A stretch of 62,210 nucleotides of DNA, filler included, from Asterionella formosa (GCA_002256025.1; 26 parts of 26 records of this genome joined end to end with filler, not necessarily neighbours in it), one strand, 5' to 3'; positions 2,406 through 62,210 are shown, numbered from the whole stretch's first letter. The notes: generated by a model not told the origin, from the sequence alone. Made by a program: numbers and translations.

Positions 2406-3021
2406 GATTTGCCGGTTCCACAAACAAGGCAAGCTCTGATTACAAGATTCGACAATACCAATCACCGTGGTGACCAGCAGCCGCCATTCCCTCTCCATGC
2501 ACCTCCTATTGCTGTGGTTGTTGTTACTGCACCTCCTCCTGTTGCTATTCCCTCTCCTTCTACAACTGCTACTGCCGAGGATCCACCATTCCGTGATGAA
2601 GTTTGAGACTCCGCAAGCAAGTAATTAGATGCAAAGAAGCTCGAGATTAATGTAATGCATCAGAAGAATTCTCCAACGATGATGCTGCCCCTCCAAAAGT
2701 GTAAAACGTAAAGTAATAAGAAAATAATTTTTGTAGTATTAACGGAGTAAAAATAAACACGGTTTGGGGGTAAAATATATCCATGTACAGATAGAAAAAT
2801 ATGCACTGTAAGCCACCGCTATGCAATAATCTTAGTGACTTTGGAAAAATTATTTCTGCATGGCTAGATACACTGAATCAAAACTGATTCCTTAATAGTA
2901 TAGCAGAGAGCATTGTCTAACATAAGCTTTGTACTTGCGTCAAGTTTGGATCGTTGAATTACATAAATATTTTTAGTCGAAAGATAGAGTAAAATAGCGG
3001 TGGCTTACAGTTTTTAAGTGG
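2406..3021 (+). mobile_element. 3' end of a decayed pogo/Tc1-like DDE transposon (transposase C-terminus plus terminal repeat)
   Basis: PVPQTRQALITRF..TNHRGDQQ matches the C-terminus encoded at 47098-47808. There is a perfect 18-bp inverted repeat at 2805-2822/2994-3011. The end ...CAGTTTTTAAGTGG|TA matches 46454-46469 (reverse) and 51290-51319. Confidence 0.65.
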
Positions 3022-3546
3022 TACCTGGTACCGTTTCTCTTGGACTTGGAGACCTCCTCCGAATTTTAGATGCTTTGATTTGCCTGGAAGGTCCGGTAAT
3101 CAGCGCACATCGCGTGCAGGTTGCTTGTTTTCTGTTCATCGATTCACGTTCAAGAAAAAGGAAGGGGTATACCCCAAAAATTGTCGAACCCCAAAATTTT
3201 GCGCCACTCCGATATCCTTTTAAGGTTCTGCATTTGAACCCCTAGGCAAAAATTAAAATATTGCTTAGGGTTGCCGAAATTCCCTGTTACTACGCATGAG
3301 AGCATACTGGTCGATACTGCTAATTCATTTATTCGCCTGAAATATTGAACAATCTTGACCATCTCTTTTTGAGGTTACTTGGTTTTCTTTGTAGGTTTTC
3401 CAGATGTGAAGACATATTCCCACGTGATGGAATTCCGAACAGTTATAGCAATGACCGAAGGGCTAACGTAGCGGTACCAAGTACCTGCAAATAACAAAAG
3501 ATTTACCTTTCTTTATCCCAGATTAGTAAATTGTTTGTTTACCCAA

Positions 3547-4810: not shown

Positions 4811-5052
4811 AGTATTTCAAATAATTATGTGAAGTATTTCAAATAATTATGTGAAGGTGATCACATAATATAGTGATGATCAGGAATGCATGCATGATAC
4901 TTTGATCAAATATTTAACGTGATGTATTCAGATAATATATAGACATGTTCAACTACGTATTTTGATGTATTCAACTAATTCATGTGATGCATTCAAAATC
5001 AACTAGGCTTATTTACGTGATGGTCACTTCACGTAATACGCGGCTTAGATGT
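4811..5052. repeat. End of a repeat family with 22-bp GTGAAGTATTTCAAATAATTA(T/C) units
   Basis: Same units at ~17420-17575. The motif CGCGGCTTAGATG (~5039-5051) is the reverse complement of CATCTAAGCCGCG at 17578-17590. Confidence 0.7.
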
Positions 5053-6027: not shown

Positions 6028-7033
6028 TCTTACTCTGTGAATCATGTTCTTCACTTCCAGAAAAGCAACGAGGACTCTGTTGCGGGCCGGTTCTGGAAGA
6101 AACAGACAGGCAATTATTTTGTTATTCCTTGTCAGTAGTACAGAAAGGATGCATCTGAAAGTTCGAGAAATATATGGTAAGCAGTTAATATTTTGGAAAA
6201 TGGAGACAGGTCATGTGTTAGATTGTTGTTGTTCTTCCTCTTGTTGCTCTGCATCATCGTGTTCTTCGACTTGTGCTCTGAACTATGTTTGATTGTTGTT
6301 GTAGTTCCTCTACCTCAATTTCGTTCTTCCTCTTTCTTGTTCCGTTTGGAATTGGAACAGTGGTCAAGTCATGAACTTACTCTGTGAACCTTGTTCTTTT
6401 CCTACGGACAATCAAAATGTTTTTGGCAGGGCAGGGTTGAACCTTGGGAAGAATGAAATGTGTCGTGCTCTGTGTCAGGCAGGCTATCAATCATTTGTTT
6501 TTCGCATTGCCGAAGCGATTCCTCTGGTGCAAAGGGGACAATAATATACATGGTAAGCAAGTGCAATGTTTTCTTGCCTTTTGTTGCTTGATACTGTTTG
6601 CTGTTGCTTGTTGTGGGCGGATCTCCTCTCCTATTCTCCTTCGTCTTTGTTCGGAATTGTTAGCGCATGAATTGCTATTTGTAATGAATTATAAAAAGAG
6701 CTTGATTGTGTGCTTGTTACTTGCTTGTTGATCACGAACTTACTCTGCAAACGCTGTTCTTTGTCTACAGACAATCAATCTGTTGAGCGAGAGATTTGTT
6801 GGGAATCAGGCTGCGGCATGGTAGCTAAGCACAACGAAAATGATGCCTTTGTAACGATTGTTTGTTCATGAACTCACTCTACGATTGTTGTTCACTGATT
6901 GCAGACAATCATATGATCAGGGCTGGGTTGGCCATTGGGGAACATGGTAAGGAGCACAGCAGAAACGAAATCATGGCTTCGTAACTTTTTTTTCTCATCA
7001 ACTCACTCTGCAAATGTTTCCCTCTTTCTACAA
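6028..7033 (-). other. Candidate array of five 21-nt microexons (degenerate intron-exon repeat)
   Basis: 21-nt blocks at 7007-7027, 6878-6898, 6744-6764, 6381-6401 and 6034-6054 each end (C/T)AGA followed by a GT(A/G)AG donor on the minus strand. Three have GTAG acceptors preceded by a GATTGTC motif. Confidence 0.45.
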
Positions 7034-12295: not shown

Positions 12296-12320
12296 TAATC
12301 GGCGTTGTAGATGTAAGTGA

Positions 12321-12954
12321 AGATAGAAGCGAAATGCATGTTGTTGTGTAAGCAAATCATGAACAGCTAACAATGAATTGCTTCTCCTTGTTAGTATGGC
12401 TGATTGGAACAAAGATTCAATAGTAATAGGAAAATGCGTGAATGCAAACTCAGATCTGTCAGGAGTAAATGGAACAAAGCAGGGGAACAACGGCAAGGCA
12501 ACCAGTACAACAACCTTCAGAATTGGATTGGGGGGAAGGTGGAATTGAAAGCGGCACCAACAATCATTGCGATGAGAGCATTGTAGAACATTCTGTAGCC
12601 ACTCGAGATATAGGAGCATAGAACCATTCTTAAATATAATTCTAAATTTCGATCAATTTCATCCTATTTTAGACAGTGATATCGATGAGAATTACGATCA
12701 TGCTAAGATAGATGTATGACAAAAGTATACACATCATATGATAATGTTTAACTAATTATATGATGCAATGGTATTATAACTATGATAGTATCATCATACT
12801 TCAAGCTCGGTAAAAGTTTACTGCATGATCATAATTATATGATACATTGATCATATTTTTGATCGAAAAACTATCATATATGTGAAAATCCTGTGCCACT
12901 TTGTGTACGATAGCCTTGATCCTATATTCATGATAGTATTTATTTACAGACGCA
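12321..12954 (+). repeat. ~630-bp interspersed repeat with ATCAT/ATGAT-rich tail, second copy at ~48960-49604
   Basis: Long near-identical blocks, e.g. GATAGAAGCGAAATGCATGTTGTTGTGTAAGC and GACAGTGATATCGATGAGAATTACGATCATGCTAAG. Confidence 0.9.
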
Positions 12955-17419: not shown

Positions 17420-17590
17420 ATTACGTGAACTATATTATAGAATTACGTGAACAAATTATAAGGCAATGTGAACTAAATTACAGAATTAAGTGAAGTATTC
17501 CAGATAGTTACATGAAGTATTTCAAATAATTACGTGAAGTATTTCAAATAATTATGTGAAGGTGATCACGTAATATACATCTAAGCCGCG
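17420..17590. repeat. ~7 tandem 22-bp GTGAA-anchored units ending in CATCTAAGCCGCG
   Basis: TGAA recurs every ~22 nt. The last units match 4811-4870. Confidence 0.75.
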
Positions 17591-17941
17591 AAATACGCCA
17601 CTTTTCGAAATTTGTTCTACATAGGAGTGTTAATTATGTGGTACTTCACATGAATTAGCTAATGCCACTCTTCCCGAAGAAAAGGTTACTTTTAACGGTT
17701 TCATGTGAAGATTTCACGAAAAACTTTGAACTCGAGACTGGTAGCTACTACTGCTTGTACTGATGGTGGAGGTGCTGCTGGCTGCTGCGACTCCTTCCAT
17801 ATTGACAACAACCACACTTTCAACATTGACACAGGAATGTGAATATAGAACACACTTTCCTCCCTCGTAGCCGAGCAGACTGGTGCATCTATCTTTCATT
17901 TTCTTCCATGTACGACGAAGTGTACAAAGAGATGATGGTGA

Positions 17942-19217: not shown

Positions 19218-21170
19218 TCATAGTGCGTTCGATAGAGATCATTCATTGAATAACGAAAGTAATCAATCTTGCGATCACTCTGTCGAGAGGGACAGCGAGC
19301 CACTTCCGAGGAGTGCGGCTGCTGCAAGCGATGCAGCATACTCCATTGGTAGTTATCGCTCTGACAAGAACGAGAATTCTGCCGATTCCTTCATCGGTCA
19401 AGATCAGAAGAGACCAGAAGGCACATCGGATCGCTCCATTGTCAGCTCGAGGAGCCATTGTTCCGACGACATTTCGATCGACTCCAATGGTGCTCCATTG
19501 TCAAGGAGTCCCATGGTCACCACCGGTGATCGCTCGGTTTATAGTGGTCATAGTCATCGATCCGATGCGCGCTCATTTGACTCTCGTGGTGAATTGTTAC
19601 CGAGGAGATCAGTTGACCCAGACGATCATTCCTATAGCCGCAGCAGCAGCTATCGATCAAATGAGCGCTCCTTGGATCCTTTCAACCAATCATTGCTCAG
19701 TAGACGAGACGACAGCGGTCATCATTCCTCCTATACAAGGAGCTACCTGTCAGGCGACCATACTATGGATACCAATGGTTCACCACGGACGTTCCGATCA
19801 GACTCTGAGAATCGCTCTGATTATCGGACCGACCATAGTGGGGGAAATCGATCAAATGTATTGGACGCCTCCGTAGCTTTGACGGATGTTGCAAAGGACC
19901 GGGACTCCACAGGTTCTGTCAGATCCTCGAAATATTCTTCAAACAAAGAGTCATCGCCAGAAAGTAATGCCGGTTCTCGTCATAGTGCGTTCGATAGAGA
20001 TCATTCATTGAATAACGAAAGTAATCAATCTTGCGATCACTCTGTCGAGAGGGACAGCGAGCCACTTCCGAGGAGTGCGGCTGCTGCAAGCGATGCAGCA
20101 TACTCCATTGGTAGTTATCGCTCTGACAAGAACGAGAATTCTGCCGATTCCTTCATCGGTCAAGATCAGAAGAGACCAGAAGGCACATCGGATCGCTCCA
20201 TTGTCAGCTCGAGGAGCCATTGTTCCGACGACATTTCGATCGACTCCAATGGTGCTCCATTGTCAAGGAGTCCCATGGTCACCACCGGTGATCGCTCGTT
20301 TTATAGTGGTCATAGTCATCGATCCGATGCGCGCTCATTGGACTCTCATGGTGAATTGTTACCGAGGAGATCAGTTGACCCAGACGATCATTCCTATAGC
20401 CGCAGCAGCAGCTATCGATCAAATGAGCGCTCCTTGGATCCTTTCAACCAATCATTGCTCAGTAGACGAGACGACAGCGGTCATCATTCCTCCTATACAA
20501 GGAGCTACCTGTCAGGCGACCATACTATGGATACCAATGGTTCACCACGGACGTTCCGATCAGACTCTGAGAATCGCTCTGATTATCGGACCGACCATAG
20601 TGGGGGAAATCGATCAAATGTATTGGACGCCTCCGCAGTTTTGACGGATGTTGCAAAGGACCGGGACTCCACAGGTTCTGTCAGATCCTCGAAATATTCT
20701 TCAAACAACGAGTCATCGCCAGAAAGTAATGCCGGTTCTCGTCATAGTGCGTTCGATAGAGATCATTCATTGAATAACGAAAGTAATCAATCTTGCGATC
20801 ACTCTGTCGAGAGGGACAGCGAGCCACTTCCGAGGAGTGCGGCTGCTGCAAGCGATGCAGCATACTCCATTGGTAGTTATCGCTCTGACAAGAACGAGAA
20901 TTCTGCCGATTCCTTCATCGGTCAAGATCAGAAAAGACCAGAAGGCACATCGGATCGCTCAATTGTCAGCTCGAGGAGCCATTGTTCCGACGACCTTTCG
21001 ATCGACTCCAATGGTGCTCCATTGTCAAGGAGTCCCATGGTCACCACCGGTGATCGCTCGTTTTATAGTGGTCATAGTCATCGATCCGATGCGCGCTCAT
21101 TGGACTCTCGTGGTGAATTGTTACCGAGGAGATCAGTTGACCCAGACGATCATTCCTATAGCCGCAGCAG
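19218..21170 (+). repeat. 762-bp tandem repeat, ~2.6 copies
   Basis: TCATAGTGCGTTCGATAGAGATC recurs at 762-nt spacing. Copies differ by only a few substitutions. Confidence 0.97.
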
Positions 21171-26984: not shown

Positions 26985-28044
26985 ACAAAGGTTGCTAAAT
27001 ACATTTCCGACAAAGAAAGCAAAACACAAGTTTGTATGAAGGATGCCAGTGTGACTGCTATTGTAAATGCAATGTCAGACATTGTACTGAAAAGTACAAA
27101 GTAGTCAATCTGTCCTTACCCTGCTGTACAAGCTATGAAGTCCCCTCGTCTCAGTGAGCATACCGCCGAAGGATCGCCAGCGAAAGTATTCAAGCTTACT
27201 TGGCTGCCGACTGTCTCCCTGCATCCCTACTATGCACCTGGAGACGGAATGGTACCTCAAGTGAAAGCAAGCTCTGTTTCTGCTGCTCCGAAAGTCTACA
27301 GGGGGTCATCTCATCCTCATCCTCTACATACGAACTACTGGGTGGATTACAGGCCAGCCAAGGAATGGCACATGCGAAGAGACGATTTATGGGTCTTACA
27401 TTGCTACTTTTGTCGCAAATCATGGAAATCAAGAAAGATGGAGATTAAGACAATGCTGGATGGTGTGATTACGACAAAGGTTGCTAAATACATTTCCGAC
27501 AAAGAAAGCAAAACACAAGTTTGTATGAAGGATGCCAGTGTGACTGCTATTGTAAATGCAATGTCAGACCTTGTACTGGAAAGTACAAAGTTGTCAATCT
27601 GTTCTTACCCTGTGCAAAATATGAAGTCCCCTCATCTGAGTGAGCATCCCACCGAAGGATCGCCAGCGAAAGTATTCAAGCTTACATGGCTGCCGACTGT
27701 CTCCCTGCATCCCTACTATGCACCTGGAGACGGAATGGTACCTCAAGTGAAAGCAAGCTCTGTTTCTGCTGCTCCGAAAGTCTACAGGGGGTCATCTCAT
27801 CCTCGTCCTCTACATACGAACTACTGGGTGGATTACAGACCAGCCAAGGAATGGCACATGCGAAGAGACGATTTATGGGTCTTACATTGCTACTTTTGTC
27901 GCAAATCATGGAAATCAAGAAAGATGGAGATTAAGGCTATGCTAGATGGTGTGGTTGCAACAAAGGTTGCTAAATACATTTCCGACAATGAAGACAAAAG
28001 GCAAGTTTGTATGAAAGATATCAGTGTGACTGCTATTGTAAATG
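26985..28044. repeat. 486-489-bp tandem repeat, ~2.2 copies, carrying a 316-aa + strand ORF (27135-28085)
   Basis: ACAAAGGTTGCTAAATACATTTCCGACAA occurs at 26985, 27474 and 27960. Confidence 0.95.
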
Positions 28045-28142: not shown

Positions 28143-28980
28143 TGAAATTCTATCAAGTTCGGTTTGCTCGCTGTGAAATGTTTCCTTAGAAGACACACTC
28201 GATCGTTCAAGTAACAACTGGTTTGGGACCCAGTAACCCCTACGGGGGTACGCCCTCGAGTTCAATTGTCTTCTTCTGGTCTGATCTCACAACAGGTAGA
28301 CCGTTCTCACAAACCAATGAGGCGGCGAATTACAACAATGTATTATAGAGCTATAGAGCTATGAAGCTTTTCTTTTCGTTGATGACTACTTTGTATTATA
28401 GTAGAAGGCATTAACTTATTTTCGGGTGTGACGATTACTTTGTCTTATAGAAGCTATAGCTATCGCTATAGCTATAGAACAATTGGACTTATTTCATTAT
28501 AGTGACTCTATAGCTACATCTTATATTCATCTCTACATTCTGCATTGTAGGTGCATTTGCGTTAGTCGGTAACAAACATTTGTACACTTCGAAATACTGG
28601 TACCGGTAGTCTGGAATGACATAATCATCATCATTGGGTTTTAGGGTTTTAGACACGAATATAGTGAACGACACTTGTTGCGATTCAAGCCCTTAGCGAC
28701 CGNNNNNNNNNNNNNNNNNNNNNNNNNNNNNNNNNNNNNNNNNNNNTTAATTAATTAANNNNNNNNNNNNNNNNNNNNNNNNNNNNNNNNNNNNNNNNNN
28801 NNATAACAATCGTTTTCTTGTTTCTGACACAATGCACAAATATGTCGTCTAACTCTCGGAGTAGTACCCTGGTACCCTGGTACTGGAGTACCAGGTACCA
28901 GACCTACTCAAGTGGTAGAAGTGTATACCGAAAGTACTTGACAAGTACCAGGTACCACCAGTACAGAAGTTACTTCGACT

Positions 28981-30290
28981 CAGGCCGTTGCTAACCATTG
29001 ACGCAAACCAAAACCCAAAAACTTATTTTTGGATTGGTTTTGGTCAACTGAGGCAAAAGCGATGCTATTGGTTTTTGGGAAATCCTAAATGTTGTCAACC
29101 ACCCATCTACAGTGACGCAGGATGACAAAACCATTATAAAAAAAGTAAAATATTTCTATTAGACTACTTTTATAAATGAAATATTATGATTGCTATTTGG
29201 GAATTAGTTAGTTTTCCCCGCAATTTCCCGGTAGTGCCGTAAATATATATATATACTCCGACCACACTTCTTCATGATGACATGCAACTGATGACAGCAG
29301 TTTCAGCAACCCAGACAGAATTGAATGCCGCTATCTCGACCATCACATCAGCAGGACTGAATCTAAAGGAAGGTATCACTGGCACCCTTCTTGACAAAGT
29401 TATTGAATTTAGGAACAAAGAGGATTCAAGGAATGGCATCAATCTCGATCAGATGGGTCGCCAATGGAAGGAATCGGCGCTATCGGCAATCGCGCAAAAT
29501 AAAAGGTATACAGCAGAACTTCTTGTGGCGGCTGGACGCTTTAAACTGGGAACAGAAGCACTGGATGATATAACTAGGATGAAAAGAAGAGCAGAGGAGA
29601 AGGAGAGTGAGAAAGCGAATAAGAAAGTTTTGAACTACACAGCAACATTGAACAAGGTGCAAGCGATCAGAGCGCTTAACAAACAGGAACACAAATGCAC
29701 CTTTTCGCAAACAAAAACATGCGATCATCTACTGCTTACTTACCAGATATATTGATACAATGGGATGTGGCGATGCACCAGTCCCAGTTGCCGGAGCTAT
29801 ACTGCCACCAGCAGCCTCAGTTGAAGAGGACGACGAGGATGAAGTTGTGGTGACAGAAGATTGATTTATGTGTTCCGCATAATAAATCGACTTCGATTTG
29901 TTGTTGTTGTTGTTCTCGCCAGTGTGGTATGGTACCCTGGTACCAGGTACCAGAGTACCAGTACCGTATAGCTATTGTTGTATATAGATGTGATATACCG
30001 GTACCGGCATATGATGCGTCCTATATGTAGTGATTCTGCGACGATATTAATTGGTTTTCTAGTGAATACATTCAAAGTAGTCAATATGGAATCCTACGTT
30101 TAGGTAACTTTGGGAAAAAAACCTAAACGTAATGCGTTTGGGTAACTTATTGGGATATGGGCACGGAATCCCCTAAACGTAATGCGTTTGCGTTGGGTTT
30201 TTCACTCCTGATGGCATCGTTTTTAGGGTTACCAAAAGCAAAACACTGTTTGGTTTGCGTTTTGGTCCACCCACCGTTAGCAATGGCCTC
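28981..30290. mobile_element. Putative non-autonomous TIR element (hAT-like termini) enclosing a DDE transposase fragment
   Basis: CAGGCCGTTGCTAAC (28981-28995) and GTTAGCAATGGCCTC (30276-30290) match 13/15 as an inverted repeat. Subterminal CCTAAACGTAATGCGTTTG occurs twice. No clean TSD. Confidence 0.45.
29282..29865 (+). pseudogene. C-terminal fragment of the pogo-like transposase family
   Basis: LNLKEGITGTLLDKVIEFRNKEDSRNGINLD...KRYTAELLVAAG...LG aligns with LNLSDGYAGTLVDRVVEYRNREDARNGIDLD...KRISAGLLASAG..LG at 47098-47808. Confidence 0.75.
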
Positions 30291-31430
30291 AATTACCGAC
30301 TTGTTCGACTGCCTTTTCCTGCAAATATTTCTCTCTGTTCTCCTCAGCCGATAGTAAATCTTTAGACGCGTAGTTGGGGTTTTTGATTTCGGTTCTATGT
30401 GGTATTGATTCATTTCCCCCCTCTGGGTCCCTGTCGCTGCAGTCGAGTTTGCACTTTAGCCATGGGTGGGACGTAGGGAGGGTGAATTTTATCTATTGAA
30501 TATAAATTTTTGCACAGCTTGGATTCAACAATGTTGCTTTGCTGAAAGCTGATTCGAAGAATTGCGAGCTTTTTGCCTTGAAACCCTTACATGGTTGTTT
30601 GTTGGCTGATTGACTCTTCCATGACCTTCTCTTGTGTGGTTTACTGTCATTCACTTGCCATCGAACCTCATCTTCATTTTTGGCTAGACAGAATTAGCTC
30701 CCGTAGTTGCTAACTAGGCCTCCACCTCAAATTTCGCTTGCTCCTAGTTTGTTCGTCGTTCCCTTGGTTTCAATGCGCGCTTCGTGCACATCCCCCTGTT
30801 TCCCTTGTCTATAATACTAACTGGTACCGGTACCTGGTACCTGGTACTACACATGGTGTAAGGAGGAATGATCATTCGCGATGTTGCCGACAAGGATGTA
30901 GGAGCCTGCCTCGTGCTGATGACATCTTTGGCTTTCTCCTTGCAGAGCGATCTTTTTCTTTGGCTGGGGCAATGGTCGTGTGGTGATTCACATGCAACAG
31001 TGCCCATAGTCAAAAATTTTCAGTTTTCCGGGTTTGTTATTAAAGCTAAAACTTGTTTTGCTAGTTTCCCCGAGTTTTTTGATGAGGCTTGTCTATANNN
31101 NNNNNNNNNNNNNNNNNNNNNNNNNNNNNNNNNNNNNNNNNTTAATTAATTAANNNNNNNNNNNNNNNNNNNNNNNNNNNNNNNNNNNNNNNNNNNNTCT
31201 GACTCTTCACATGGAGAAGTCCAGCATGTTGTGAAGGAACATGTTGACCACAAGGCTGGGCGAGGGTCTAACATTTCGTACCAGGATTCTTCGAAGGTGG
31301 TGGAGCATGAAGAACCAGCACCTATGCCAACCTATCCTGGAGCCATTGCGGTGGGAGGGAGAGATCGTGCACGTCCTAGTGCTGAAGTTACAAACAATGA
31401 ATGGAATGTAGAGGAGTCCCATGTAATCGG

Positions 31431-32015
31431 TCAACAACCACTTGCCGCAGCAGTTTGATTGTTGACGTAGGAAACAAAATCTTGAATTGTCTCCTGATCC
31501 AGCCTTGTATTTTGGGCGACACGAGTCACACGCCTAATGACACTGTCCTTATGGGCAAGCCAGCGCTTGATCCGTTTTTCAAGTGCCTTCAGTGACACAT
31601 TTTCGTTCCCAGGTTGCCTCTTAAGCTCAACACTGAGCATACTGGTGGTGCAGGCCCTATCTTGAAGCCGCAACTGGTCGAAAAGAGTCCTCAATCCTTC
31701 GAAATCAGCAGCACTTTTTGGAGAGCGGCCCGGGTGAGCGATTTTTTTCATCAACACCTGCCTCTGAATCACACCTTCTTCCTGCAGAGGAATCTCCGCC
31801 ACCTCCGCCGGAACCACAACCATTGCACCATCCAGCATGGACTTCCAGCTCCGGATCTGCTTTGGCTGAACCAAATATGCTCTGGCGGTTGCCTTGATAT
31901 TGTTGGGCTTGCTGTATGCTTCCGCAACAATAATTTTCTTTTGCATGATGCAGAGATATTTTTTCGTTGTCATGCTGATGATTCCGTAGAAAATGATTTG
32001 GTTGGCTAACCTCAA
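31431..32015 (-). pseudogene. pogo/Tigger-like transposase N-terminus (Brinker-like HTH plus CENP-B-like HTH), truncated before the DDE domain
   Basis: KKIIVAEA....NIKATARAYLVQPKQIRSWK and KRIKRWLAHKDSVIRRVTRVAQ. Confidence 0.7.
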
Positions 32016-32417
32016 TTTCTATCACGATTAGTTTTGTAGAACCTACACAATTTATTACATCGTAGAATCAGGTACAAATTGTATACACTCTAGAAATTTC
32101 TGTTGAAGTCATGACGAAATTCGGGCGTGCCAGTGCTCCAAAAATAGAAATTCAATTGATCCTAGATGCCGATTGAACCAAAAACAATACATCTTTTAAT
32201 GTTGCTATTTATGTTTTAGACTATGGAGAAAACGGTGGTGAAGTTGGTTTTTTCATAAAAGTTTGACAATCAAAAAAGTTCCAATGTCTTGTACTCCCCT
32301 CTAAGTAAAATCAGTCGTGGCTGTGTACATTGAGGGGTACGAGACACCAGGTTTTACGGTAAGCTAAAATGACCCTCGGGGTTATTATTCTACCGGTATG
32401 TTAAATACTAATTTATG

Positions 32418-40773: not shown

Positions 40774-43073
40774 AAAAAGTAGAAGTGGAAGTTGATGTTG
40801 GAGATTTCGGTCCAATATCAATATCATCCTCCACCAAAGACTCAAGCCTCGGGAGGCGAGAGATGGAATCTGCAATAGCATTGTCAGTCCCTTTCACATA
40901 ATGAAAAGTAGGATGGTATTCTTCAATGTAAAGTCTCCATCGTAGAACACGTTGAGTATGTAATGTATTATAAATAAGATTTCGATGATCAGTGTGAACA
41001 TGTAGAACTGCGCCCAATAACATAGAGCGAAATTCTTTGAAAGTTTCTACCACAGAAAGTAATTCTTTTTCAATTGTAGTATAATTCTTTTGAGCAGCAG
41101 ATAGTTTGCGAGAATAATAAGCAATTGGGAGATCATTTTGCATAATGACCGACCCTAATTGACAATCAGAGGCATCAGTAAAGATATGAAAAGGAAGATT
41201 ATGGTCAGGATAACGCATGAGTGTATCTGCCACTAACAATGCTTTCATTTCTTCAATAGCTTGTTGATGGATAGGTAACCAGACAAAGGGACTAGTTCCA
41301 ATTAAATCCGTAAGTGATCCAAGAACATGCGATCGTCTAGGAAACATGTCTCGATAGTAAGTAACAGCACCGAGAAATGATTGAACTTGTTTAAGATTGG
41401 TAGGTGAAGACATATTAATCAATGCTCGGACCTTTTTAGACCAAGGTTTCAGTCCATTAGGAGTTAACCAATAGCCTAACCAATCTGTCTCTTGGACGGC
41501 TCATTCACACTTAGATGGATTAATTGTAAAACCATTTGTCTGTAAACGATATAAAATAGTGTCCAATAAATGAAGGTGATCTGAAAAATTCATTGAAAAA
41601 CAACCCACATCATCAATATAAATTTCCACATCATCTAAATCACTAAGGATCTGTTCCATGGTTTCTTGTGCAATGTCAGATGATTGTTTCACCCCCATAG
41701 GGAGGCGTAAATATTTATATAAACCAAATGGAGTTGAAATAACACACAAGTTTTGACTCTCCTCATCCAATGCAAAAGTATAGTATTGCATAGAAACATC
41801 CAATTTGGTGAAAAATACATATCGAGCACGTTTAGTGAGAATATTTTGTATTCGAGGCAAAGGATATATATTGCGATTGATGACTTTATTAAGTTCACGA
41901 AAATCTGATACTCATCGGACACTTCCATCCTTTTTTGGAATAATAAAAGTGGGAGATGCCCATTTAGAAGCACCACATTTTTGGAGGACTCCAATATCAC
42001 ATAATCGTTGTAATTCCGTTTTGAAAACTTCTAAATGAATATGAGCGACCGGATATGCTCGTTGATGACGAGGAACAGCATTTGATAATAATTCCAAATG
42101 TACCTGTTTATGAGGATAGACTTTTAATTTGCCATCAAATAATGTTTGATATTTAACCAATATAGATCGTAAACATGATCGTTGTATTGTTGTCAAATGT
42201 ATCTGTTTATCCACCACTGTGTCAATATTTACGTAATTATATTCAGCAGCTTTAATTTCCAGCGCATATGAAGATTCCACAATCATAGGTGCATCGAAAT
42301 ATAATAATATATCTCGTAAACGTTCTTTATCATCAAAGAATGTGAGAGGATGCATAGGAACAATCATATCCATACAGGACATGGTGTTATTTACGAAGTC
42401 AATGGTTAAACCAATTTGACGTAGGAAATCACGTCCTAAAATAACGTCAAAGGTGCATTGACCATTAAAGACTTGACACTTTTGTTGTAAAATATGATCG
42501 GATCGATTAAATTCCGGTAAAATCAGGTCATATAGCATGACACTGGAATGAGATGAATAAGCACCAGCTATGGTATGTATTAATTGGGAAGTCTCGTCAG
42601 ACAAAGAAATACCTTGAGGCATAACCCGTTCATGTATTAAGGATAACGATCCTCCACTGTCGAATAATACTCGTAGTATTTGATGTATCGGTATATTATC
42701 CACCAATCTTGGCGCTAAAAGGGACATCGGAATCAAATCAATTGATGTTAATATATCCTTAGAAGTAAAACAGGAAACCGGAATTGGGCCCTGATATGTA
42801 TATGGAACATCATGTCCATCAATACAGTTATATATATCCCGCGTAACCTTAACCGCGGTATCCATAGTGTATTCAACCTGTAAATAAACAATATTATTCA
42901 GGTGATGACTAACGTGAGATATACTCAACGAGTCATTATAAATAGCATCGCTATTATCGCACATACCGGTACCTCTGTAATGGCGATCAGCAATCTGCTG
43001 TTGTATAGTAGGGACAAAAGTCACTATCTGGCCAGCAGGAGGGTTCGTGACCACTGAAATTTCCTGGGCAGAT
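40774..43073 (-). mobile_element. Ty3/gypsy pol (protease-RT-RNase H), copy A, with two TGG>TGA stops
   Basis: LFDSGG protease, [35 protein letters not shown]. Stops at 41912-41914 and 41501-41503 sit where the other copies have Trp. Confidence 0.95.
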
Positions 43074-43173
43074 NNNNNNNNNNNNNNNNNNNNNNNNNNN
43101 NNNNNNNNNNNNNNNNNTTAATTAATTAANNNNNNNNNNNNNNNNNNNNNNNNNNNNNNNNNNNNNNNNNNNN

Positions 43174-45469
43174 GATTGCTGATCGCCATTACAGAGGTAT
43201 GTGCGATAATAGCGATGCTATTTATAATGACTCGTTGAGTATATCTCACGTTAGTCATCACCTGAATAATATTGTTTATTTACAGGTTGAATACACTATG
43301 GATACCGCTGTTAATGTAACGCGGGATATATATAACTAACTGTATTGATGGACATGATGTTCCACATACATATCAGGGACCAATTCCGGTTTCTTGTTTT
43401 ACTTCTAAGGATATATTAACATCAATTGATTTGATTCCGATGTCCCTTTTAGCGCCAAAATTGGTGGATAATATACCGATACATAAAATACTACGAGTAT
43501 TATTCGATAGTGGAGGATCATTATCCTTAATACATGAACGGGTTATGCCTCAAGGTATTTCTTTGTCTGACGAGACTTCCCAATTAATACATACCATAGC
43601 TGGTACTTATTCATCTCATGCCAGTGTCATGCTATATGACCTGATTTTACCAGAATTTAATCGATCCGCTCATATTTTACAACAAAAGTGTCAAGTCTTT
43701 AATGGTCTATGCACATTTGATGTTATTTTTGGACGTGATTTCCTCCGTCAAGTTGGTTTAACCATTGATTTCGTAAATAAAACCATGTCCTGTAAGAATA
43801 TGATTGTTCCTACTATGCATCCTCTTACATTCTTTGATGATTGAGAACGTTTTCGTGATCTATAATTATATTTTGATGCACCTATGATTGTGGAATCTTC
43901 ATATGCGCTGGAAATTAAGCTGCTGAATAAAATTACGTAAATATTGATACAGTGGTGGATAAACAAATACATTTGACAACAATACAACGATCATGTTTAC
44001 GATCTATATTGGTTAAATATCAAACATTATTTGATGGCAAATTAAAAGTCTATCCTCACAAACAGGTACATTTGGAATTATTATCAAATGCTGTCCCTCG
44101 TCATCAATGAGCATATCCGGTCGCTCATATTCATTTAGAAGTTTTCAAAACTGAATTACAACGATTATGTGATATTGGAGTCCTACAAAAATGTGGTGCT
44201 TCTAAATGGGCATCTCCCACTTTTATTATTCCAAAAAAGGATGGAAGTGTCCGATGGGTATCAGATTTTCGTGATCTTAATAAAGTCATCAATCGCAATA
44301 TATATCCTTTGCCTCGAATACAAACTATTCTCACTAAACGTGCTGGATATGTATTTTTCACCAAATTGGATGTTTCCATGCAATACTATACTTTTGCATT
44401 GGATGTGGAGAGTCAAAACTTGTGTGTTATTTCAACTCCATTTGGTTTATATAAAATTTACGCCTGCCTATGGGGGTGAAACAATCATCTGACATTGCAC
44501 AAGAAACTATGGAACAGATCCTTAGTGATTTAGATGATGTGGAAATTTATATTGATGATGTGGGTTGTTTTTCAATGAATTTTTCAGATCACCTTCATTT
44601 ATTGGACACTATTTTACATCGTTTACAGATAAATGGTTTTACAATTAATCCATCTAAGTGTGAATGGGCCGTCCAAGAGACAGATTGGTTAGGCTATTGG
44701 TTAACTCCTAATGGACTGAAACCTTGGTCTAAAAAAGTCCGAGCATTGATTAATATGTCTTCACCTACCAATCTTAAACAAGTTCGATCATTTCTCGGTG
44801 CTGTTACTTACTATCGAGACATGTTTCCTAGACGATCGCATGTTCTTGGACCACTTACGGATTTAATTGGAACTAGTCCCTTTGTCTGGTTACCTATCCA
44901 TCAACAAGCTTTTGAAGAAATGAAAGCATTGTTAGTTGCAGATACACTCATGCGTTATCCTGACCATAATCTCCCTTTTCATATCTTTACTGATGCCTCT
45001 GATTATCAATTAGGGTCGGTCATTATGCAAAATGATCTCCCAGTTGCTTATTATTCTCGCAAATTATCTGCTGCTCAAAAGAATTATACTACTATTGAAA
45101 AAGAATTACTTTCTGTGGTAGAAACTTTCAAAGAATTTCGCTCTATGTTATTGGGCGCAGTTCTACATGTTCACACTGATCATCGAAATCTTATTTATAA
45201 TACATTACATACACAACGTGTTCTACGATGGCGACTTTACATTGAAGAATACCATCCTACTTTTCATTATGTGAAAGGGACTGACAATGCTATTGCAGAT
45301 TCCATCTCTCGCCTCCCGAGGCTTGAGTCTTTGGTGGAGGATGATATTGATATTGGACCGAAATCTCCAACATCAACTTCCACTTCTACTTTTTCAATTG
45401 AATTAGATGATGAACCTCTGCTTACATGTTTCCTTAATCATCCCATCTTGACAGACAATATTCAATATC
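43174..45469 (+). mobile_element. Ty3/gypsy pol, copy B, with stops and frameshifts in the 5' half
   Basis: Same start and end as 59917-62210. Lesions near 43337, 43842, 43917, 43929, 44108 and 44455. Confidence 0.95.
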
Positions 45470-46455
45470 NNNNNNNNNNNNNNNNNNNNNNNNNNNNNNN
45501 NNNNNNNNNNNNNTTAATTAATTAANNNNNNNNNNNNNNNNNNNNNNNNNNNNNNNNNNNNNNNNNNNNAACATGCTGAAGCAGGCTGTCCAGCTTCATT
45601 CCAACGCTCTGGGATTCAACAACTGCGCTTGACATTGAGCTGGGGTGCGGATGAGTCTTGTCCTTGTTGAATTCGACGTAGCTAGTTTGCAGAAGTATGT
45701 CCCACCAACAGGCACGGCGAGTTCAATGCGTTTTGTTTCGTGTTTCGACTGACGAAATGAGTACGGAGTGCTCACAGTTGAAGGTTTGAAATTTATGCTC
45801 ACGTTCGGGGGCAAGTGGTCTATCGTGATTTATGTGCTGTAGAACCTGGGAGCTACGAAGTAAAGCTTGCCACATACCAGGAACTATATATGCCTTGGGC
45901 AATGAGAAAATATCGAAATTGAATCAAATGCATCAGGCGGCGAGGTGGATGGCGGGAGCTGAGGCAGGCCGAGGCCCTGCCTGTGACAGGACAACGTCAA
46001 CATCACTCATGATAGAAAATCAATCTTATAGGCAGGATGAATGTACATAATTATATATGAATATAGTTTATAAATCAATGCTCGAAGATGTGCGTGGTGG
46101 AGTCGGTACGAGAGAAACGTTGACTACCGGTATGCCAGTTGGTGCTAGTGTATATCATAAGAAAAGCTTTCAAAACGAAAAGAAATTATGTTAAACCTGG
46201 CCGACTTTCCGTTGATTTTCACGATAACATAAATGGCATTCATGCTTGAAAGAAGCTTTTTTACAAATCATAAAGAAGTGGTGCTGCACAAGGCAGCAGC
46301 GCACTAGGGTAACTGGTACCCTGGTACCGTTATACCGGTATCCTCTACCAATACATGCAACTTGCGGTCCTTTGGCTTAAATAAACAATTTAATATGGGA
46401 TAAAGTAAGCTAACATTTTGAAGTACCCTGCATTCGCAATTTTTGGTACCAGGTA

Positions 46456-47860
46456 CCACCTAAAAACTGAGGGTCATATAAAGTTTACCCCATGTTTCGA
46501 CTCAAACTATTTTAGTCAAATTTCATGGTGACAACAAATCAAGTACGTAGCTAAATGTAGAACAGGCTCTCCGCTTTCAATAGGTCTATTTAATTAGTAA
46601 TGAAGCTTCATAAGTCAAGAGATATGAAGTTTTTAAAGTTGATGATTATGGTCGTTTTGTATGACTATCAATACATATTTTTTACCACGTACCTGAAGAA
46701 AATTTTATATTCAAATTCTGGTTTCGATTACCCTATTGTTCACTCTAAAGCTTTTTCCTGCCACAATATTATTTGTCCGTTGAATCATCTACCCATTTAT
46801 TATTAATTGTTTTCATTTTTTAAACCTTAAATAATAATGTGTTTGCCTTTTAACTCAAATATTATTTCAGTTTTTGGGTCAATAATCTTACTTTCATTCG
46901 TTTTGATGATGGTTTGATATAGATTTATATAGGGATTATTTACATTCGTCACTAATTAGTGTTCTGCTTACATCAGGCTACTGGTTTGGTATTACTACTA
47001 TGACAGATGTCAGCCAAGCGAGAATTTTTTGTTTGATTGCTTGTTTGCTTCTCCACCTTGCTTGCTCCGCTTCCGCCTCCTTGTTTCGTCGCTTCCTTCA
47101 TATTTCTCCTCTCAGCCAGCCACCCTTCATATTCTTCCTTGCCCGAAGCATGCAAGGCAGTGCGGCTGGAATTTCAATTTCCCCCTTATGTGCCAGCACA
47201 ATTGTCAACTCCAGGCCAAGGGGGAGAATAGGGGGGATGCGACTCGCAGCAAGAACCACAGCACTTTCGATCTCTTCTGCTGGCGCCTGCTGGTCTCCTC
47301 GGTGTGAGGTCTCTCCCAAGCGGGTAAGTAGGGCTTGTCTTGTTTGTGGTACCGGGAAATCTCCGTTGCGTCGAAACCATCGCACAAGGATCTTAATTTT
47401 AGGAACTGACAGCATATGCTCAGGCTTGTTGGCTGCGCATTGAGCCATAAATTTGTTCCGTAGCTTCATAAATTCATGCTGCCTTTTGTTTTGACGCTCA
47501 GTAACCAGTTCCTCTGCCTTTCTCTTTCTCACCAATGCAGATGCAAGCACATTTGGTCCAAGAGCATGAATGCCAGCAGATGCCAATAGGCCGGCAGAGA
47601 TTCTTTTCTTGTGGGAGTCGAGATGGGCTTGGGCAGTTTCCTTGCGTTGACGGGCTTGGGCATCAAGGTCGATTCCATTTCGAGCATCTTCACGATTCCT
47701 GTATTCAACAACACGGTCAACTAGAGTGCCAGCATATCCATCTGACAGATTTAATTCTTGGGGAGAAGTAGCATTTCCAGTGTTGTTGTTTTGGGTGCCA
47801 TTTTTCAATGTTGTCTTTGTAAGTTGGATTTCAGAGTGATTGAGAACATTATAGTTGAGT
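46456..47860 (-). mobile_element. 3' part of a pogo-like DDE transposon (transposase C-terminus 47098-47860 and terminal repeat)
   Basis: ORF is homologous to 2409-2606, ~18700-19117 and 29282-29755. Terminus TA|CCACCTAAAAACTG at 46454 matches the end at 3008-3023. Confidence 0.7.
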
Positions 47861-48959
47861 NNNNNNNNNNNNNNNNNNNNNNNNNNNNNNNNNNNNNNNN
47901 NNNNTTAATTAATTAANNNNNNNNNNNNNNNNNNNNNNNNNNNNNNNNNNNNNNNNNNNNATATGTCTATATACATAAATGTATGATTTCGACCATTTGA
48001 AAAATTGGTGATGACTCCCGTTTATTAAGGGGCTTAATTAAATCAGCCACTGACTTGTAGGTACAAGAATTGACACAAAAAAATTGAAAAACTCAGCAGG
48101 TCGTGGAAAACTATGAACTCATCATGCATTGTATATATTTGAATTATGTATAATCAAAATTGATATTAGTTTACACAGGATGTGCTGTATAATGAGCGTG
48201 TTTAAAACTATGCAAATGTTCAACTATATATACATTTAAACTTCTTACAAATCTTTATATATATGTATTCATGGCTGAAAAATATGAAATCATGTTTTCA
48301 TGCATTTACTTTGCTCCTGAAATGAAGGATTAACACAGATGATGACGCCGAAAACGAAAGTGATAATACAGCACAATGATACTTGCGGCTTAGAAGAGAA
48401 GGTCGGAATCAATTGATGGTAAGGCAAGAGCAAATGCCTTTCATGTTCCTTGTCATGCTTCATCCACTTCCTGAAATGAAGGATCTCAAGCAACACATGA
48501 TGCGAAAACCTGAAGTGACAATACAGCACGATAAGAATGAGTGAATATGATGGAGAAGGGCGGAATCAACAAGCTGTGCATAGCATCACGGTTTGTCAAG
48601 AGCAAATGCCAAGATGATCTATTGCTGGGATTACAAATACGGAATGACTCGTCCCCTTTCAGTGATTCAATAGCTCCTTTTCGATTTGGTGGCTGGCCAA
48701 CCATCAATGTGGAAAAAAGAAATCGGTAAATGCTGCCTATCAGCCATCTTTGCTTGGATCAATCTACAACTGTTAGAAAAACTGCCACATATGTGTTGCT
48801 TCTTTCAGAATAATGGTAGACAAACAGTATTTGTAAGTTACAAACAGCAGTGTTGGAGCCCATTTATTGATCGATACTTTGCTTCTCATTCAATCTTCGA
48901 CTGACACATTCTTCTACAGAAATATGCATCAGATACCTCAATTTGTGGTAAGTGAAGGC

Positions 48960-49604
48960 AGATAGAAGCGAAATGCATGTTGTTGTGTAAGCAAAACATG
49001 AACAGCTAACAATGAATTGCTTCTCTTTGTTAGTATGGCTAATTGGAACAACAAAACGGATTCAATTGTTTGTTAATGCAAACTCTGATCCGTCAGGAGT
49101 AAATGGAGCAAAGCAAGCAGGGGAACAACGGCAAAGCAACCAGTACAACAACCTTCAGAATTGGATTGGGGGGAATGTGGAAGTGATAGTGAAAGCTGAA
49201 GCACCAATCATTGCAATGAGAGCATTGTAGAACATTCTGTAGCCACTCAAGATATAGAAACCTAAAACCATTCTTAGCTAAATATAGTTCTAAATTTCGA
49301 TCAATTTCATCCTATTTAAGACAGTGATATCGATGAGAATTACGATCATGCTAAGATAGATGTATGACAAAAGTATACACATCATATGACCATGTTTAAC
49401 TAATTATATGATACAATGGTACTATTATAACTATGATAGTCTCATCATACTTCAAGCTTGGTAAAAGTTTACTGCATGATCATAATTATATGATACATTG
49501 ATCATATATTTGATCCAAAAACTATCATATATGTGAAAATCCTGTGCCACTTAGCGTACGATACCCTTGATCATATTTTCATGATATTTTTTATTTACAG
49601 ACGC
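48960..49604 (+). repeat. Second copy of the 12321-12954 repeat
   Basis: Direct alignment by eye, with small indels. Confidence 0.9.
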
Positions 49605-53712: not shown

Positions 53713-53864
53713 CCAAAATTACCCATAGCTGTGTACCCACGCTCGCATTTATGACGACTAAAGTCGCCCTTTCCATGGCCTTGTCTTGTCACGTGCTAGG
53801 AGTAGGTAAGGAGATTGTACGTGGGTACAGAGCTATGGGTAATTTTGGTTTAGGGTTAGGGTTA
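53713..53864. repeat. 29-bp inverted repeat followed by TTAGGGTTAGGGTTA
   Basis: Arms at 53713-53741 and 53820-53848 (one mismatch). Telomere-like hexamers at 53850-53864. Confidence 0.85.
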
Positions 53865-59916: not shown

Positions 59917-62210
59917 GATTGCTGATCGCCATTACAGAGGTGGTATGTGCGATAATAGCGATGCTATTTATAATGACTCGTTGAGTATATCTCACGTTAG
60001 TCATCACCTGAATAATATTGTTTATTTACAGGTTGAATACACTATGGATACCGCTGTTAATGTAACGCGGGATATATATAACTGTATTGATGGACATGAT
60101 GTTCCACATACATATCAGGGACCAATTCCGGTTTCCTGTTTTACTTCTAAGGATATATTAACATCAATTGATTTGATTCCGATGTCCCTTTTAGCGCCAA
60201 AATTGGTGGATAATATACCGATACATAAAATACTACGAGTATTATTCGATAGTGGAGGATCATTATCCTTAATACATGAACGGGTTATGCCTCAAGGTAT
60301 TTCTTTGTCTGACGAGACTTCCCAATTAATACATACCATAGCTGGTACTTATTCATCTCATGCCAGTGTCATGCTATATGACCTGATTTTACCAGAATTT
60401 AATCGATCCGCTCATATTTTACAACAAAAGTGTCAAGTCTTTAATGGTCTATGCACATTTGATGTTATTTTTGGACGTGATTTCCTCCGTCAAGTTGGTT
60501 TAACCATTGATTTCGTAAATAACACCATGTCCTGTATGGATATGATCGTTCCTATGCATCCGCTCACATTCTTTGATGATAGAGAACGTTTACAAGATGT
60601 ATTATTATATTTCGATGCACCTTTGATTGTGGAATCTTCATATGCGCTGGAAATTAAAGCTGCTGAATATAATTATATAAATATTGATACAGTGGTGGAT
60701 AAACAAATACATTTGACAACAATACAACGATCATGTTTACGATCTATATTGGTTAAATATCAAACATTATTTGATGGCAAATTAAAAGTCTATCCTCACA
60801 AACAGGTACATTTGGAATTATTATCAAATGCTGTCCCTCGTCATCACCGAGCATATCCGGTCGCTCATATTCATTTAGAAGTTTTCAAAACTGAATTACA
60901 ACGATTATGTGATATTGGAGTCCTACAAAAATGTGGTGCTTCTAAATGGGCATCTCCCACTTTTATTATTCCAAAAAAGGATGGAAGTGTCCGATGGGTA
61001 TCAGATTTTCGTGAACTTAATAAAGTCATCAATCGCAATATATATCCTTTGCCTCGAATACAAACTATTCTCACTAAACGTGCTGGATATGTATTTTTCA
61101 CCAAATTGGATGTTTCCATGCAATACTATACTTTTGCATTGGATGTGGAGAGTCAAAACTTGTGTGTTATTTCAACTCCATTTGGTTTATATAAATATTT
61201 ACGCCTGCCTATGGGGGTGAAACAATCATCTGACATTGCACAAGAAACTATGGAACAGATCCTTAGTGATTTAGATGATGTGGAAATTTATATTGATGAT
61301 GTGGGTTGTTTTTCAATGAATTTTTCAGATCACCTTCATTTATTGGACACTATTTTACATCGTTTACAGATAAATGGTTTTACAATTAATCCATCTAAGT
61401 GTGAATGGGCCGTCCAAGAGACAGATTGGTTAGGCTATTGGTTAACTCCTAATGGACTGAAACCTTGGTCTAAAAAAGTCCGAGCATTGATTAATATGTC
61501 TTCACCTACCAATCTTAAACAAGTTCGATCATTTCTCGGTGCTGTTACTTACTATCGAGACATGTTTCCTAGACGATCGCATGTTCTTGGACCACTTACG
61601 GATTTAATTGGAACTAGTCCCTTTGTCTGGTTACCTATCCATCAACAAGCTTTTGAAGAAATGAAAGCATTGTTAGTTGCAGATACACTCATGCGTTATC
61701 CTGACCATAATCTCCCTTTTCATATCTTTACTGATGCCTCTGATTATCAATTAGGGTCGGTCATTATGCAAAATGATCTCCCAGTTGCTTATTATTCTCG
61801 CAAATTATCTGCTGCTCAAAAGAATTATACTACTATTGAAAAAGAATTACTTTCTGTGGTAGAAACTTTCAAAGAATTTCGCTCTATGTTATTGGGCGCA
61901 GTTCTACATGTTCACACTGATCATCGAAATCTTATTTATAATACATTACATACACAACGTGTTCTACGATGGCGACTTTACATTGAAGAATACCATCCTA
62001 CTTTTCATTATGTGAAAGGGACTGACAATGCTATTGCAGATTCCATCTCTCGCCTCCCGAGGCTTGAGTCTTTGGTGGAGGATGATATTGATATTGGACC
62101 GAAATCTCCAACATCAACTTCCACTTCTACTTTTTCAATTGAATTAGATGATGAACCTCTGCTTACATGTTTCCTTAATCATCCCATCTTGACAGACAAT
62201 ATTCAATATC
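59917..62210 (+). mobile_element. Ty3/gypsy pol (protease-RT-RNase H), copy C, apparently uninterrupted ORF
   Basis: The frame starting at 59918 reads without a stop to the window end (LFDSGG, RWVSDFR, YIDD, FTDASDY, EKELL). It is absent from the ORF track because no stop is reached. Confidence 0.93.

Follow-up and report, generated by a model that had tools for sequence, protein, structure and literature searches.

We analysed 62,210 nucleotides of the alga Asterionella formosa (GCA_002256025.1; hereafter the window) and found that copies of the same repeat differ by small insertions and deletions (indels) that are real and occur genome-wide in the samples taken. These indels form two classes: class A is TA-specific, with fillers such as CCGG standing between two TAs, while class B is not TA-specific and has the form XY-filler-XY, in which XY is any dinucleotide and the filler is G, C or GC. 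We interpret both as inherited scars, left by two groups of cut-and-paste transposons on excision, with a probability of about 0.72. The window consists of 26 unplaced contigs of about 2.3 kb each, artificially joined by an N44-TTAATTAATTAA-N44 linker, and is not one locus; the linker inflates the counts of TTAATTAA in the window and creates false long open reading frames (ORFs). The source assembly comprises 68.4 Mb in 15,436 contigs. Many Gypsy, Copia and DNA-transposon fragments are present in the window, and the public DNA runs containing its sequence are mostly freshwater.

Words were counted in 199,901 bases (the 200-kb sample) from three large contigs, which are not a random choice, and expectations were taken from an order-2 Markov model. 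Loci retrieved from the genome, 300 in all, carry L-numbers; the data examined amount to about 1% of the genome and are skewed toward the queried families. The indel table was made without a preselected pattern, starting from 4,913 clean indel sites. Alignments below 80% or above 99.7% identity were excluded, and an insertion was kept if at least five other copies covered the site and at least 60% of them were without the bases, which left 281 distinct polarised insertions in repeats. A young Copia family (30 loci) showed almost no indels (1 event).

A preliminary description of the window had listed five indels between paralogues (cases 1 to 5, Table 1), all of which are present, and had called the direction of case 1 ambiguous. 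Among 25 distinct Gypsy contexts of case 1, 20 are short, three carry an additional GGT, one carries an additional TACCGG (copy A, on the strand opposite to copy B) and one is different. Because most contexts are short and TACCGG occurs in one only, copy A holds the insertion and the direction is resolved. Case 3 polarised as an insertion as well, and so did case 4 (4 long, 23 short and 1 other copy), yet the latter is also readable as a CTA tandem. The copies of case 2 are split (19 long, 14 short, 6 variants), so that the majority gives no polarity, and case 5 is the weakest, since only a short core is common to its copies, within diverged tandem units. Judged from sequence, case 1 belongs to class A and cases 2 to 5 fit class B.

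The class A words are strongly over-represented. In the 200-kb sample, TACCGGTA was seen 68 times (1.6 expected), TACC(A/T)GGTA 90 times (1.9 expected), TACCAGTA or TACTGGTA 50 times (8.1 expected) and TACC(C/G)GGTA 11 times (0.6 expected). The thirteen TACCGGTA sites listed earlier are all correct to within one base; the window total is 17 (0.5 expected), with 12 copies of TACC(A/T)GGTA (0.5 expected), which bears out the suspected excess over a Markov background. When XY-CCGG-XY was counted for all 16 dinucleotides, TA alone was enriched (136 versus 3.3, both strands of the 200-kb sample). Only 6 class A words fell within ORFs of at least 600 bases and 152 outside, though such ORFs make up 41% of the sample; the density was 1.4 per kb in unique non-coding DNA, 0.45 in repeats and 0.08 in ORFs. 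Scaled to the genome, these counts suggest tens of thousands of class A scars, with the reservation that the sampled contigs are not random. In all data, the distinct filler contexts numbered 251 for CCGG, 250 for CC(A/T)GG, 177 for CCAG/CTGG and 26 for CC(G/C)GG. The words also appear as whole insertions of 5–7 bases at TA inside repeat copies (8 events), and adjacent pairs of them are frequent (36 versus 4.4 expected).

Two groups of TA-bounded elements begin with CC, namely a CCA family (CCA directly after TA) and the CCGT elements (CCG directly after TA). Ends of the CCA family match the genome exactly at 291 places (control 0), and the family occurs as copies of 750–900 bases and as copies of 2.9–3.7 kb with a transposase. 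In Pfam, the ORF of this family matched no DDE model; the Atlas clusters closest to it are DDE_1 (0.95), and it has D..D(37)D spacing. The CCGT elements in L101 and L106 match Pfam DDE_1 above the PF03184 cut-off. A genome search with Pfam DDE_3 (Tc1-type) returned 16 candidates, none of which was a match; such elements may nevertheless be present. TA precedes 40 of 48 CCA ends and all 14 CCGT ends, and its duplication was also found at paired ends. One filled/scar pair was obtained among 184 ends tested: a CCGT element of the window ends at 32359, and L244 has TA-CCCGG-TA at the corresponding TA within a flank of 90% identity. The target bias of the elements recurs in the scars, as GG precedes TA at 26 of 48 CCA ends and in 46 of 102 flanks of isolated CC(A/T)GG scars, while isolated CCGG scars (12 of 112 flanks) resemble the unbiased CCGT ends. 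Nine of the 48 CCA ends directly adjoin a scar.

We conclude that class A words are very probably excision scars of pogo-like elements. TA duplication, a pogo-type DDE transposase, a filler of terminal bases in order and a filled/scar site were all found, and the earlier attribution to Tc1/mariner/pogo footprints thus stands for case 1 and the TACC..GGTA words, on their enrichment, insertion polarity, matching donor ends and the one filled/scar pair. The elements would duplicate TA, and cleavage some three bases inside each end would produce 3' overhangs that end-joining then seals; we infer the three-base length from the Sleeping Beauty model, as given in the accessible part of PMC8151067. 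CCG overhangs could anneal through CG to give TA-CCGG-TA, or with less overlap TA-CC(G/C)GG-TA, and CCA overhangs would meet at an A-A mismatch that is resolved to TA-CC(A/T)GG-TA or to TA-CCAG/CTGG-TA. The CCA family appears to favour GG-TA-CC as a target and every scar would rebuild that target, so scars would chain; such target feedback is the simplest reading of the chained scars. CCA-family elements were also seen end to end sharing one TA (L146:422-425; L042:3541), consistent with the same preference. Apart from these, L082:297-2628 is a pogo element with CAGTG ends next to TA, and in the 200-kb sample TACATA was enriched (217 versus 136) and TACATGTA rare (7).

Class A corresponds to a classical type of footprint, present here in unusual density. 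The accessible sections of the cited papers describe Tc1/mariner footprints such as the CAG footprint of Sleeping Beauty (PMC8151067), those of Stowaway/Osmar (PMC4561436) and taCATGta of Caenorhabditis elegans Tc1 (as cited in PMC3520976). As in those cases, the TA duplication is kept, a few terminal bases stand between the TAs and repair is by end-joining; unlike them, the donors here are pogo-like with CCA or CCG ends, the scar density in the sampled contigs is as high as about 1 per kb, and scars form chains through the GG-TA-CC preference. Alternatively, the TACC..GGTA words could be transcription-factor sites under selection, a role suggested for TACATGTA and TACCGGTA in promoters of Phytophthora. 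Similar motifs were interpreted as binding sites in the parts of PMC3597505 and PMC3520976 that were available, the latter of which considered and rejected a footprint origin of TACATGTA, and the concentration of class A words in unique non-coding DNA would agree with such a function. However, these words arise as whole insertions at TA in repeats and match element ends together with the target bias of one family; selection might retain some scars, yet it leaves their origin unexplained. We therefore regard the binding-site explanation as very improbable, and by analogy the scar reading may extend to the TACCGGTA and TACATGTA motifs of Phytophthora.

Class B was first met in comparing 30 loci each of Gypsy and of the repeat that holds cases 2 and 3; non-TA indels in the latter repeat include TT-GC-TT, CT-GC-CT, AG-GC-AG and TG-GC-TG. 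In the indel table, 151 of the 281 polarised insertions fit this pattern; 96 of them are non-tandem, so that no slippage is possible, and 66 of these 96 lie outside TA. Three-base insertions (n = 119) include 61 of the non-tandem form, with G or C as filler in 60, and four-base insertions (n = 60) include 40, with GC as filler in 36. Indels of 3–4 bases account for 179 of 281 insertions versus 10 of 93 polarised deletions. The filler was G, C or GC in nine of ten dinucleotide classes. A TA-centred signature had been proposed for all fillers; G, C and GC surround any duplicated dinucleotide, and the TA cases are a subset of class B. For XY-GC-XY, observed/expected ratios rose from 1.00 (ORFs) through 1.49 (other unique DNA) to 1.75 (repeats), so that the word extends beyond repeats. 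While XY-GC-XY is strongest in repeats, class A reaches its highest density in unique non-coding DNA, and the two donor groups may thus target different chromatin.

Replication slippage or assembly error could account for events that can be read as tandems (47 of 119 three-base and 17 of 60 four-base insertions, case 4 and the variant in Gypsy copy C). It is rejected for the 96 non-tandem events with their fixed filler, and 3–4-base indels of the class B type in an element with CGTCT ends (L043) were recovered in contigs from three or four of four public runs, belonging to four studies; the differences compared are those among copies, and the assembly itself may derive from one of these runs. 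As a general explanation we find it hardly credible. The same four runs gave no usable excision allele for L043 among the matches listed.

Class B fails the defining tests of both mariner and Ac footprints. The restriction to TA is absent, as the 66 events elsewhere attest, and the Tc1/mariner/pogo interpretation consequently does not carry over to the G, C and GC fillers of cases 2 to 5, for which no element with G..C ends and TA targets proved to be an explanation; nor is the filler the complement of the adjoining flank base, as in a hairpin footprint of Ac/hAT type. According to the accessible text of PMC2921059, PMC4561436 and PMC8151067, Ac/Ds (hAT) scars likewise have one or two extra central bases, single exchanges are common and the flank forms a hairpin. 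Ac scars, however, take the complement of the flank base and alter an 8-bp duplication, whereas class B keeps both 2-bp copies and has G, C or GC regardless of the flank. We consider class B to be probably excision scars too, and the fallback offered earlier, a hairpin or repair mechanism where fillers do not match element ends, fits it. Flank-templated palindromes were rejected as a source of TAGCTA, G following the ancestral TA in 0 of 5 contexts.

C..G ends combined with a free 2-bp duplication mark two abundant families, CATCT and CGTCT, whose ends match the genome 593 and 165 times, respectively. The target duplication was seen in 6 of 7 two-ended pairs (GA, TA, TA, TT, GG, AC). In the CATCT family, with ends CATCT..AGATG, it was GA, TA and TA in 3 of 3 pairs; in the CGTCT family, whose ends are mostly CG..CG and in part CA..TG, it was present in 3 of 4 pairs, and a second end was not seen in 15 of 17 extended copies within the stretch retrieved. 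An ORF 300 bases behind a CATCT end (L269) matches PF18759, the Plavaka transposase (5.8e-12, 45.9 bits versus a cut-off of 26.3); D256, D363 and E644 are invariant in 45 sequences, and the ORF carries CWEC and HQQMH, corresponding to the C(2)C and H(3-4)H motifs. The structure model (pLDDT 81.7) of a full-length protein 99% identical to this ORF (P0001) matches RAG1 (E 2.9e-10, Z 18.4, about 475 residues, root-mean-square deviation 4.9), followed by ProtoRAG and Transib. Its residues ~717-914 align in the model with the BAH domains of ZMET2, AIPP3, EBS and DNMT1 (Z up to 8.6, middling), and this C-terminal part may read chromatin marks.

The accessible text of PMC12730594 gives PlavakaB CATCA..TGATG ends and 2–3-bp duplications and places it in a clade with EnSpm, Transib and RAG1 (CMCT). 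The CATCT family agrees with PlavakaB and with the red-algal Plavaka elements of bioRxiv 10.1101/2025.02.11.637652, as far as these texts were available, in PF18759, the C(2)C and H(3)H motifs, CA..TG ends, the 2-bp duplication and kinship with RAG1/Transib. The ends differ, being CATCT..AGATG here (CGTCT..AGACG in the non-autonomous family), and match PlavakaB at four of five bases. The word 'footprint' is absent from the available text of both sources, and a literature search returned no description of class B scars or Plavaka footprints, nor any data on excision by Plavaka transposases; most subscription papers were outside its coverage, so this is weak evidence of novelty. The link between Plavaka and class B is the new element of this analysis, as yet unproven and with an even chance of being right.

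Scars and element flanks agree in dinucleotide preference (rho 0.75, p 0.013). A flank profile was built from positions -8 to -3 of the element flanks, and scars were scored against matched local sites: the 60 non-tandem G/C scars gave z 4.1 with the CGTCT profile and 4.5 with both families, the shifted controls giving -1.1 and 1.4. At site 17578, TA is filled by a CATCT end in the window, empty in most copies and TA-G-TA in L044. A Gypsy copy (L016:1003-1013) reads TA-CATCTAG-TA, that is, six bases of the CATCT end plus the terminal G, and this sequence shows that the CATCT family leaves traces. Resident Plavaka-type elements with C..G ends are the most likely donor of class B, an assignment about which we are evenly divided.

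Such an element would duplicate any two bases and leave each flank with a single G at its 3' end, and joining would retain one base (XY-G-XY or XY-C-XY) or both (XY-GC-XY). A RAG1-like transposase would fold the flank into a hairpin whose tip carries the base complementary to the terminal C of the element, and this would yield all three fillers. RAG itself leaves blunt signal ends and flank-derived palindromes, not a constant G. The predicted Plavaka catalytic core resembles the RAG1, ProtoRAG and HzTransib structures, a common fold that does not fix the position of the cut, and this fold is the ground on which we infer the hairpin chemistry. Hermes and Transib hairpin the flank according to the accessible part of PMC8151067, and the class B hairpin would parallel Ac scars with single-base exchanges (PMC2921059, in its available part), shifted one base inward. 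We propose, tentatively and with some doubt, that Plavaka transposases hairpin flanking DNA one base inside their own end, so that the two copies of the duplication would be separated by G, C or GC after each excision. A one-base C overhang would account for the G and C fillers, but its two-base filler would read CG instead of GC. The word XY-CG-XY shows no enrichment (ratios of 1.02 for the 200-kb sample and 1.06 for the window), and CG is rejected as the true filler.

Several observations weigh against the joint reading. For class A, the filler CCAGGG/CCCTGG occurs in 36 contexts (in the window between TAs at 28865-28882, 29933-29942 and 46317-46326) versus 1 for CCATGG, and is not predicted by three-base overhangs or by the donors found; the filled/scar pair comes without an empty allele and without the far flank. 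For class B, 136 of the 281 insertion events derive from loci retrieved for one repeat family. No transposase was found in the CGTCT copies examined, and their tie to Plavaka is through the ends alone. Without TA, the dinucleotide correlation drops to p 0.058. The 36 non-tandem GC scars gave z 1.1 (1.9 with CATCT alone) and shifted controls 1.3–1.4, and a shifted control reached z 3.2–3.5 once tandem-ambiguous events were included, because of which the null for the flank profile must be regarded as generous. Among the ends tested, no site was occupied by a Plavaka element in one copy while reading XY-GC-XY in a second, and the sole TA-G-TA case (L044) is also a TAG tandem. Finally, the L016 remnant keeps the normal C..G order; the filler GC is the reverse of the donor's C..G ends and would need an unusual hairpin cut, and a hairpin taking the G would leave the released element without its terminal 3' G, whose restoration is unaccounted for. 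Large presence/absence insertions between loci were mostly deletions and contained no scar pair.

The order of the filler is the point at which a different donor has to be weighed. Class B, or at least its GC form, could come from an element with G..C ends and a free 2-bp duplication that leaves one terminal base per flank in mariner style; G followed by C would then result directly, and the GC scars are those without a clear Plavaka flank profile. G-ended elements do exist in this genome (TA followed by GGCTGATTTC; TAA or TCA followed by GGCCG; an GGCAATTCCCGC end with varied flanks), but boundary searches in the 300 loci (~650,000 distinct 28-mers, about 1% of the genome in a biased sample) yielded no G..C element with a free 2-bp duplication, and we judge this origin unlikely. 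Two individual candidates were rejected: the GGGGTTCAAATGCAGG family, whose real end is GG directly after TTAA, as the GG family (309 matches) is TTAA-bounded, and the GGCAATTCCCGC end, for which neither a matching inverted end nor a duplication was found.

Host repair without a transposon would also make the filler constant and independent of the flank, and would agree with a signal throughout non-coding DNA: a break with a two-base stagger would be filled, an untemplated G added to each end and the ends joined. Polymerases resembling terminal deoxynucleotidyl transferase prefer G. Plain two-base duplications without filler are rare, however (at most 12 of 20 two-base insertions versus 151 events with G, C or GC), which is therefore hard to reconcile with stochastic addition of G. 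Moreover, G/C scars have the flank profile of CGTCT insertion sites, and class A scars lack an added central GC (0 CCGCGG). We consider host repair quite improbable and retain Plavaka-type excision as the candidate origin of class B.

Excision footprints are usually regarded as rare by-products, and here they appear to dominate the small insertions in repeats; homopolymers aside, the most strongly over-represented words in the sampled DNA also appear to be class A scars, at about 1 per kb. The movement of transposons would accordingly be a leading mutational force in the non-coding DNA of this alga. Filler and target bias together allow class A scars to be attributed to particular families, one of which seems to create arrays of its own target. 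If the Plavaka hairpin holds, class B scars would be the commonest small insertion in the alga's repeats and a read-out of an undescribed cleavage geometry, giving a concrete prediction on Plavaka cutting chemistry that would apply to Plavaka-rich red algae and mushroom-forming fungi.

Table 1. Putative scars and transposon fragments in the window (positions counted from its first nucleotide)
Feature	Position	Strand	Basis
Case 1, probable class A scar TA-CCGG-TA, Gypsy copy A	42964..42971	.	Singleton insertion
Variant in Gypsy copy C, GT-G-GT (class B) or GGT tandem, ambiguous	59939..59943	+	3/25 contexts
Case 2, TA-GC-TA (class B) within CGTCT-ended element	49275..49280	+	Copy tally
Case 3, TA-C-TA in the CGTCT-ended element hosting case 2	49420..49424	+	1 long, 35 short of 41 copies; insertion
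Case 4, TA-C-TA, class B or one-base pogo scar	43811..43815	+	Copy tally
Case 5, TA-GC-TA in diverged tandem unit	6822..6827	+	Weak homology
Chain of three class A units	30825..30846	.	Word scan
Chain of two CCCTGG units, filler unexplained	28865..28882	.	Word scan
Chain of two class A units	29933..29949	.	Word scan
Probable class A scar TACCAGGTA, then directly a CCA-family end (TA followed by CCACCTAAAAACTG)	46447..46470	+	Sequence
CCA-family pogo-like fragment, end at 3021, beside TACC(T/A)GGTA scar	2406..3021	-	91% to L143 over 625 bases
CCGT-ended pogo element	31446..32359	-	97% to L101
Putative class B scar TT-GC-TT	48750..48755	+	4 bases absent in 34/41 aligned copies
Class B word CT-GC-CT, old, in most copies	48733..48738	+	Absent in 5/41 aligned copies
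Class B word TT-GC-TT, old	48879..48884	+	Absent in 5/46
Class B word AG-GC-AG	48956..48961	+	Absent in 13/47
Part of non-autonomous CGTCT-ended element, end at 49603, host of cases 2 and 3	47961..49603	-	93% to L128 over 951 bases
Second CGTCT-ended copy, end at 12952	12312..12952	-	90% to L128 over 660 bases
End of CATCT-ended Plavaka-type element	4811..5051	-	End matches
CATCT end inserted at TA inside another copy of the family	17578..17740	+	Paralogue comparison

Some further features were noted. Six-base insertions at L135:1885, L122:2266, L254:2034 and L240:1058 are readable as two stacked one-base scars (TA-C-TA-G-TA, TA-C-TA-C-TA), and plain 8-base duplications in Gypsy loci (L027:1569; L010:551) may be scars of an element that duplicates 8 bp. 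An element with GG ends, bounded by TTAA, occurs in L191-L220 and at 3220-3292 of the window, its subterminal motif having 309 matches in the genome. Ends reading GGCCGTTGCTAAC directly after TAA or TCA, which we take to be Harbinger-like by their end pattern, were found at 28982 of the window and in L007, L050, L106 and L220. At 53720-53841, a 122-base TA-bounded hairpin element starting with CCCATAGC lies beside telomere-like TAACCC units. Two tandem arrays are also present in the window, one of ~486-base units (26985-28044) whose open frame has CxxC motifs and no Pfam family above the cut-off, and one of 762-base units with a serine-rich open frame (19218-21170).

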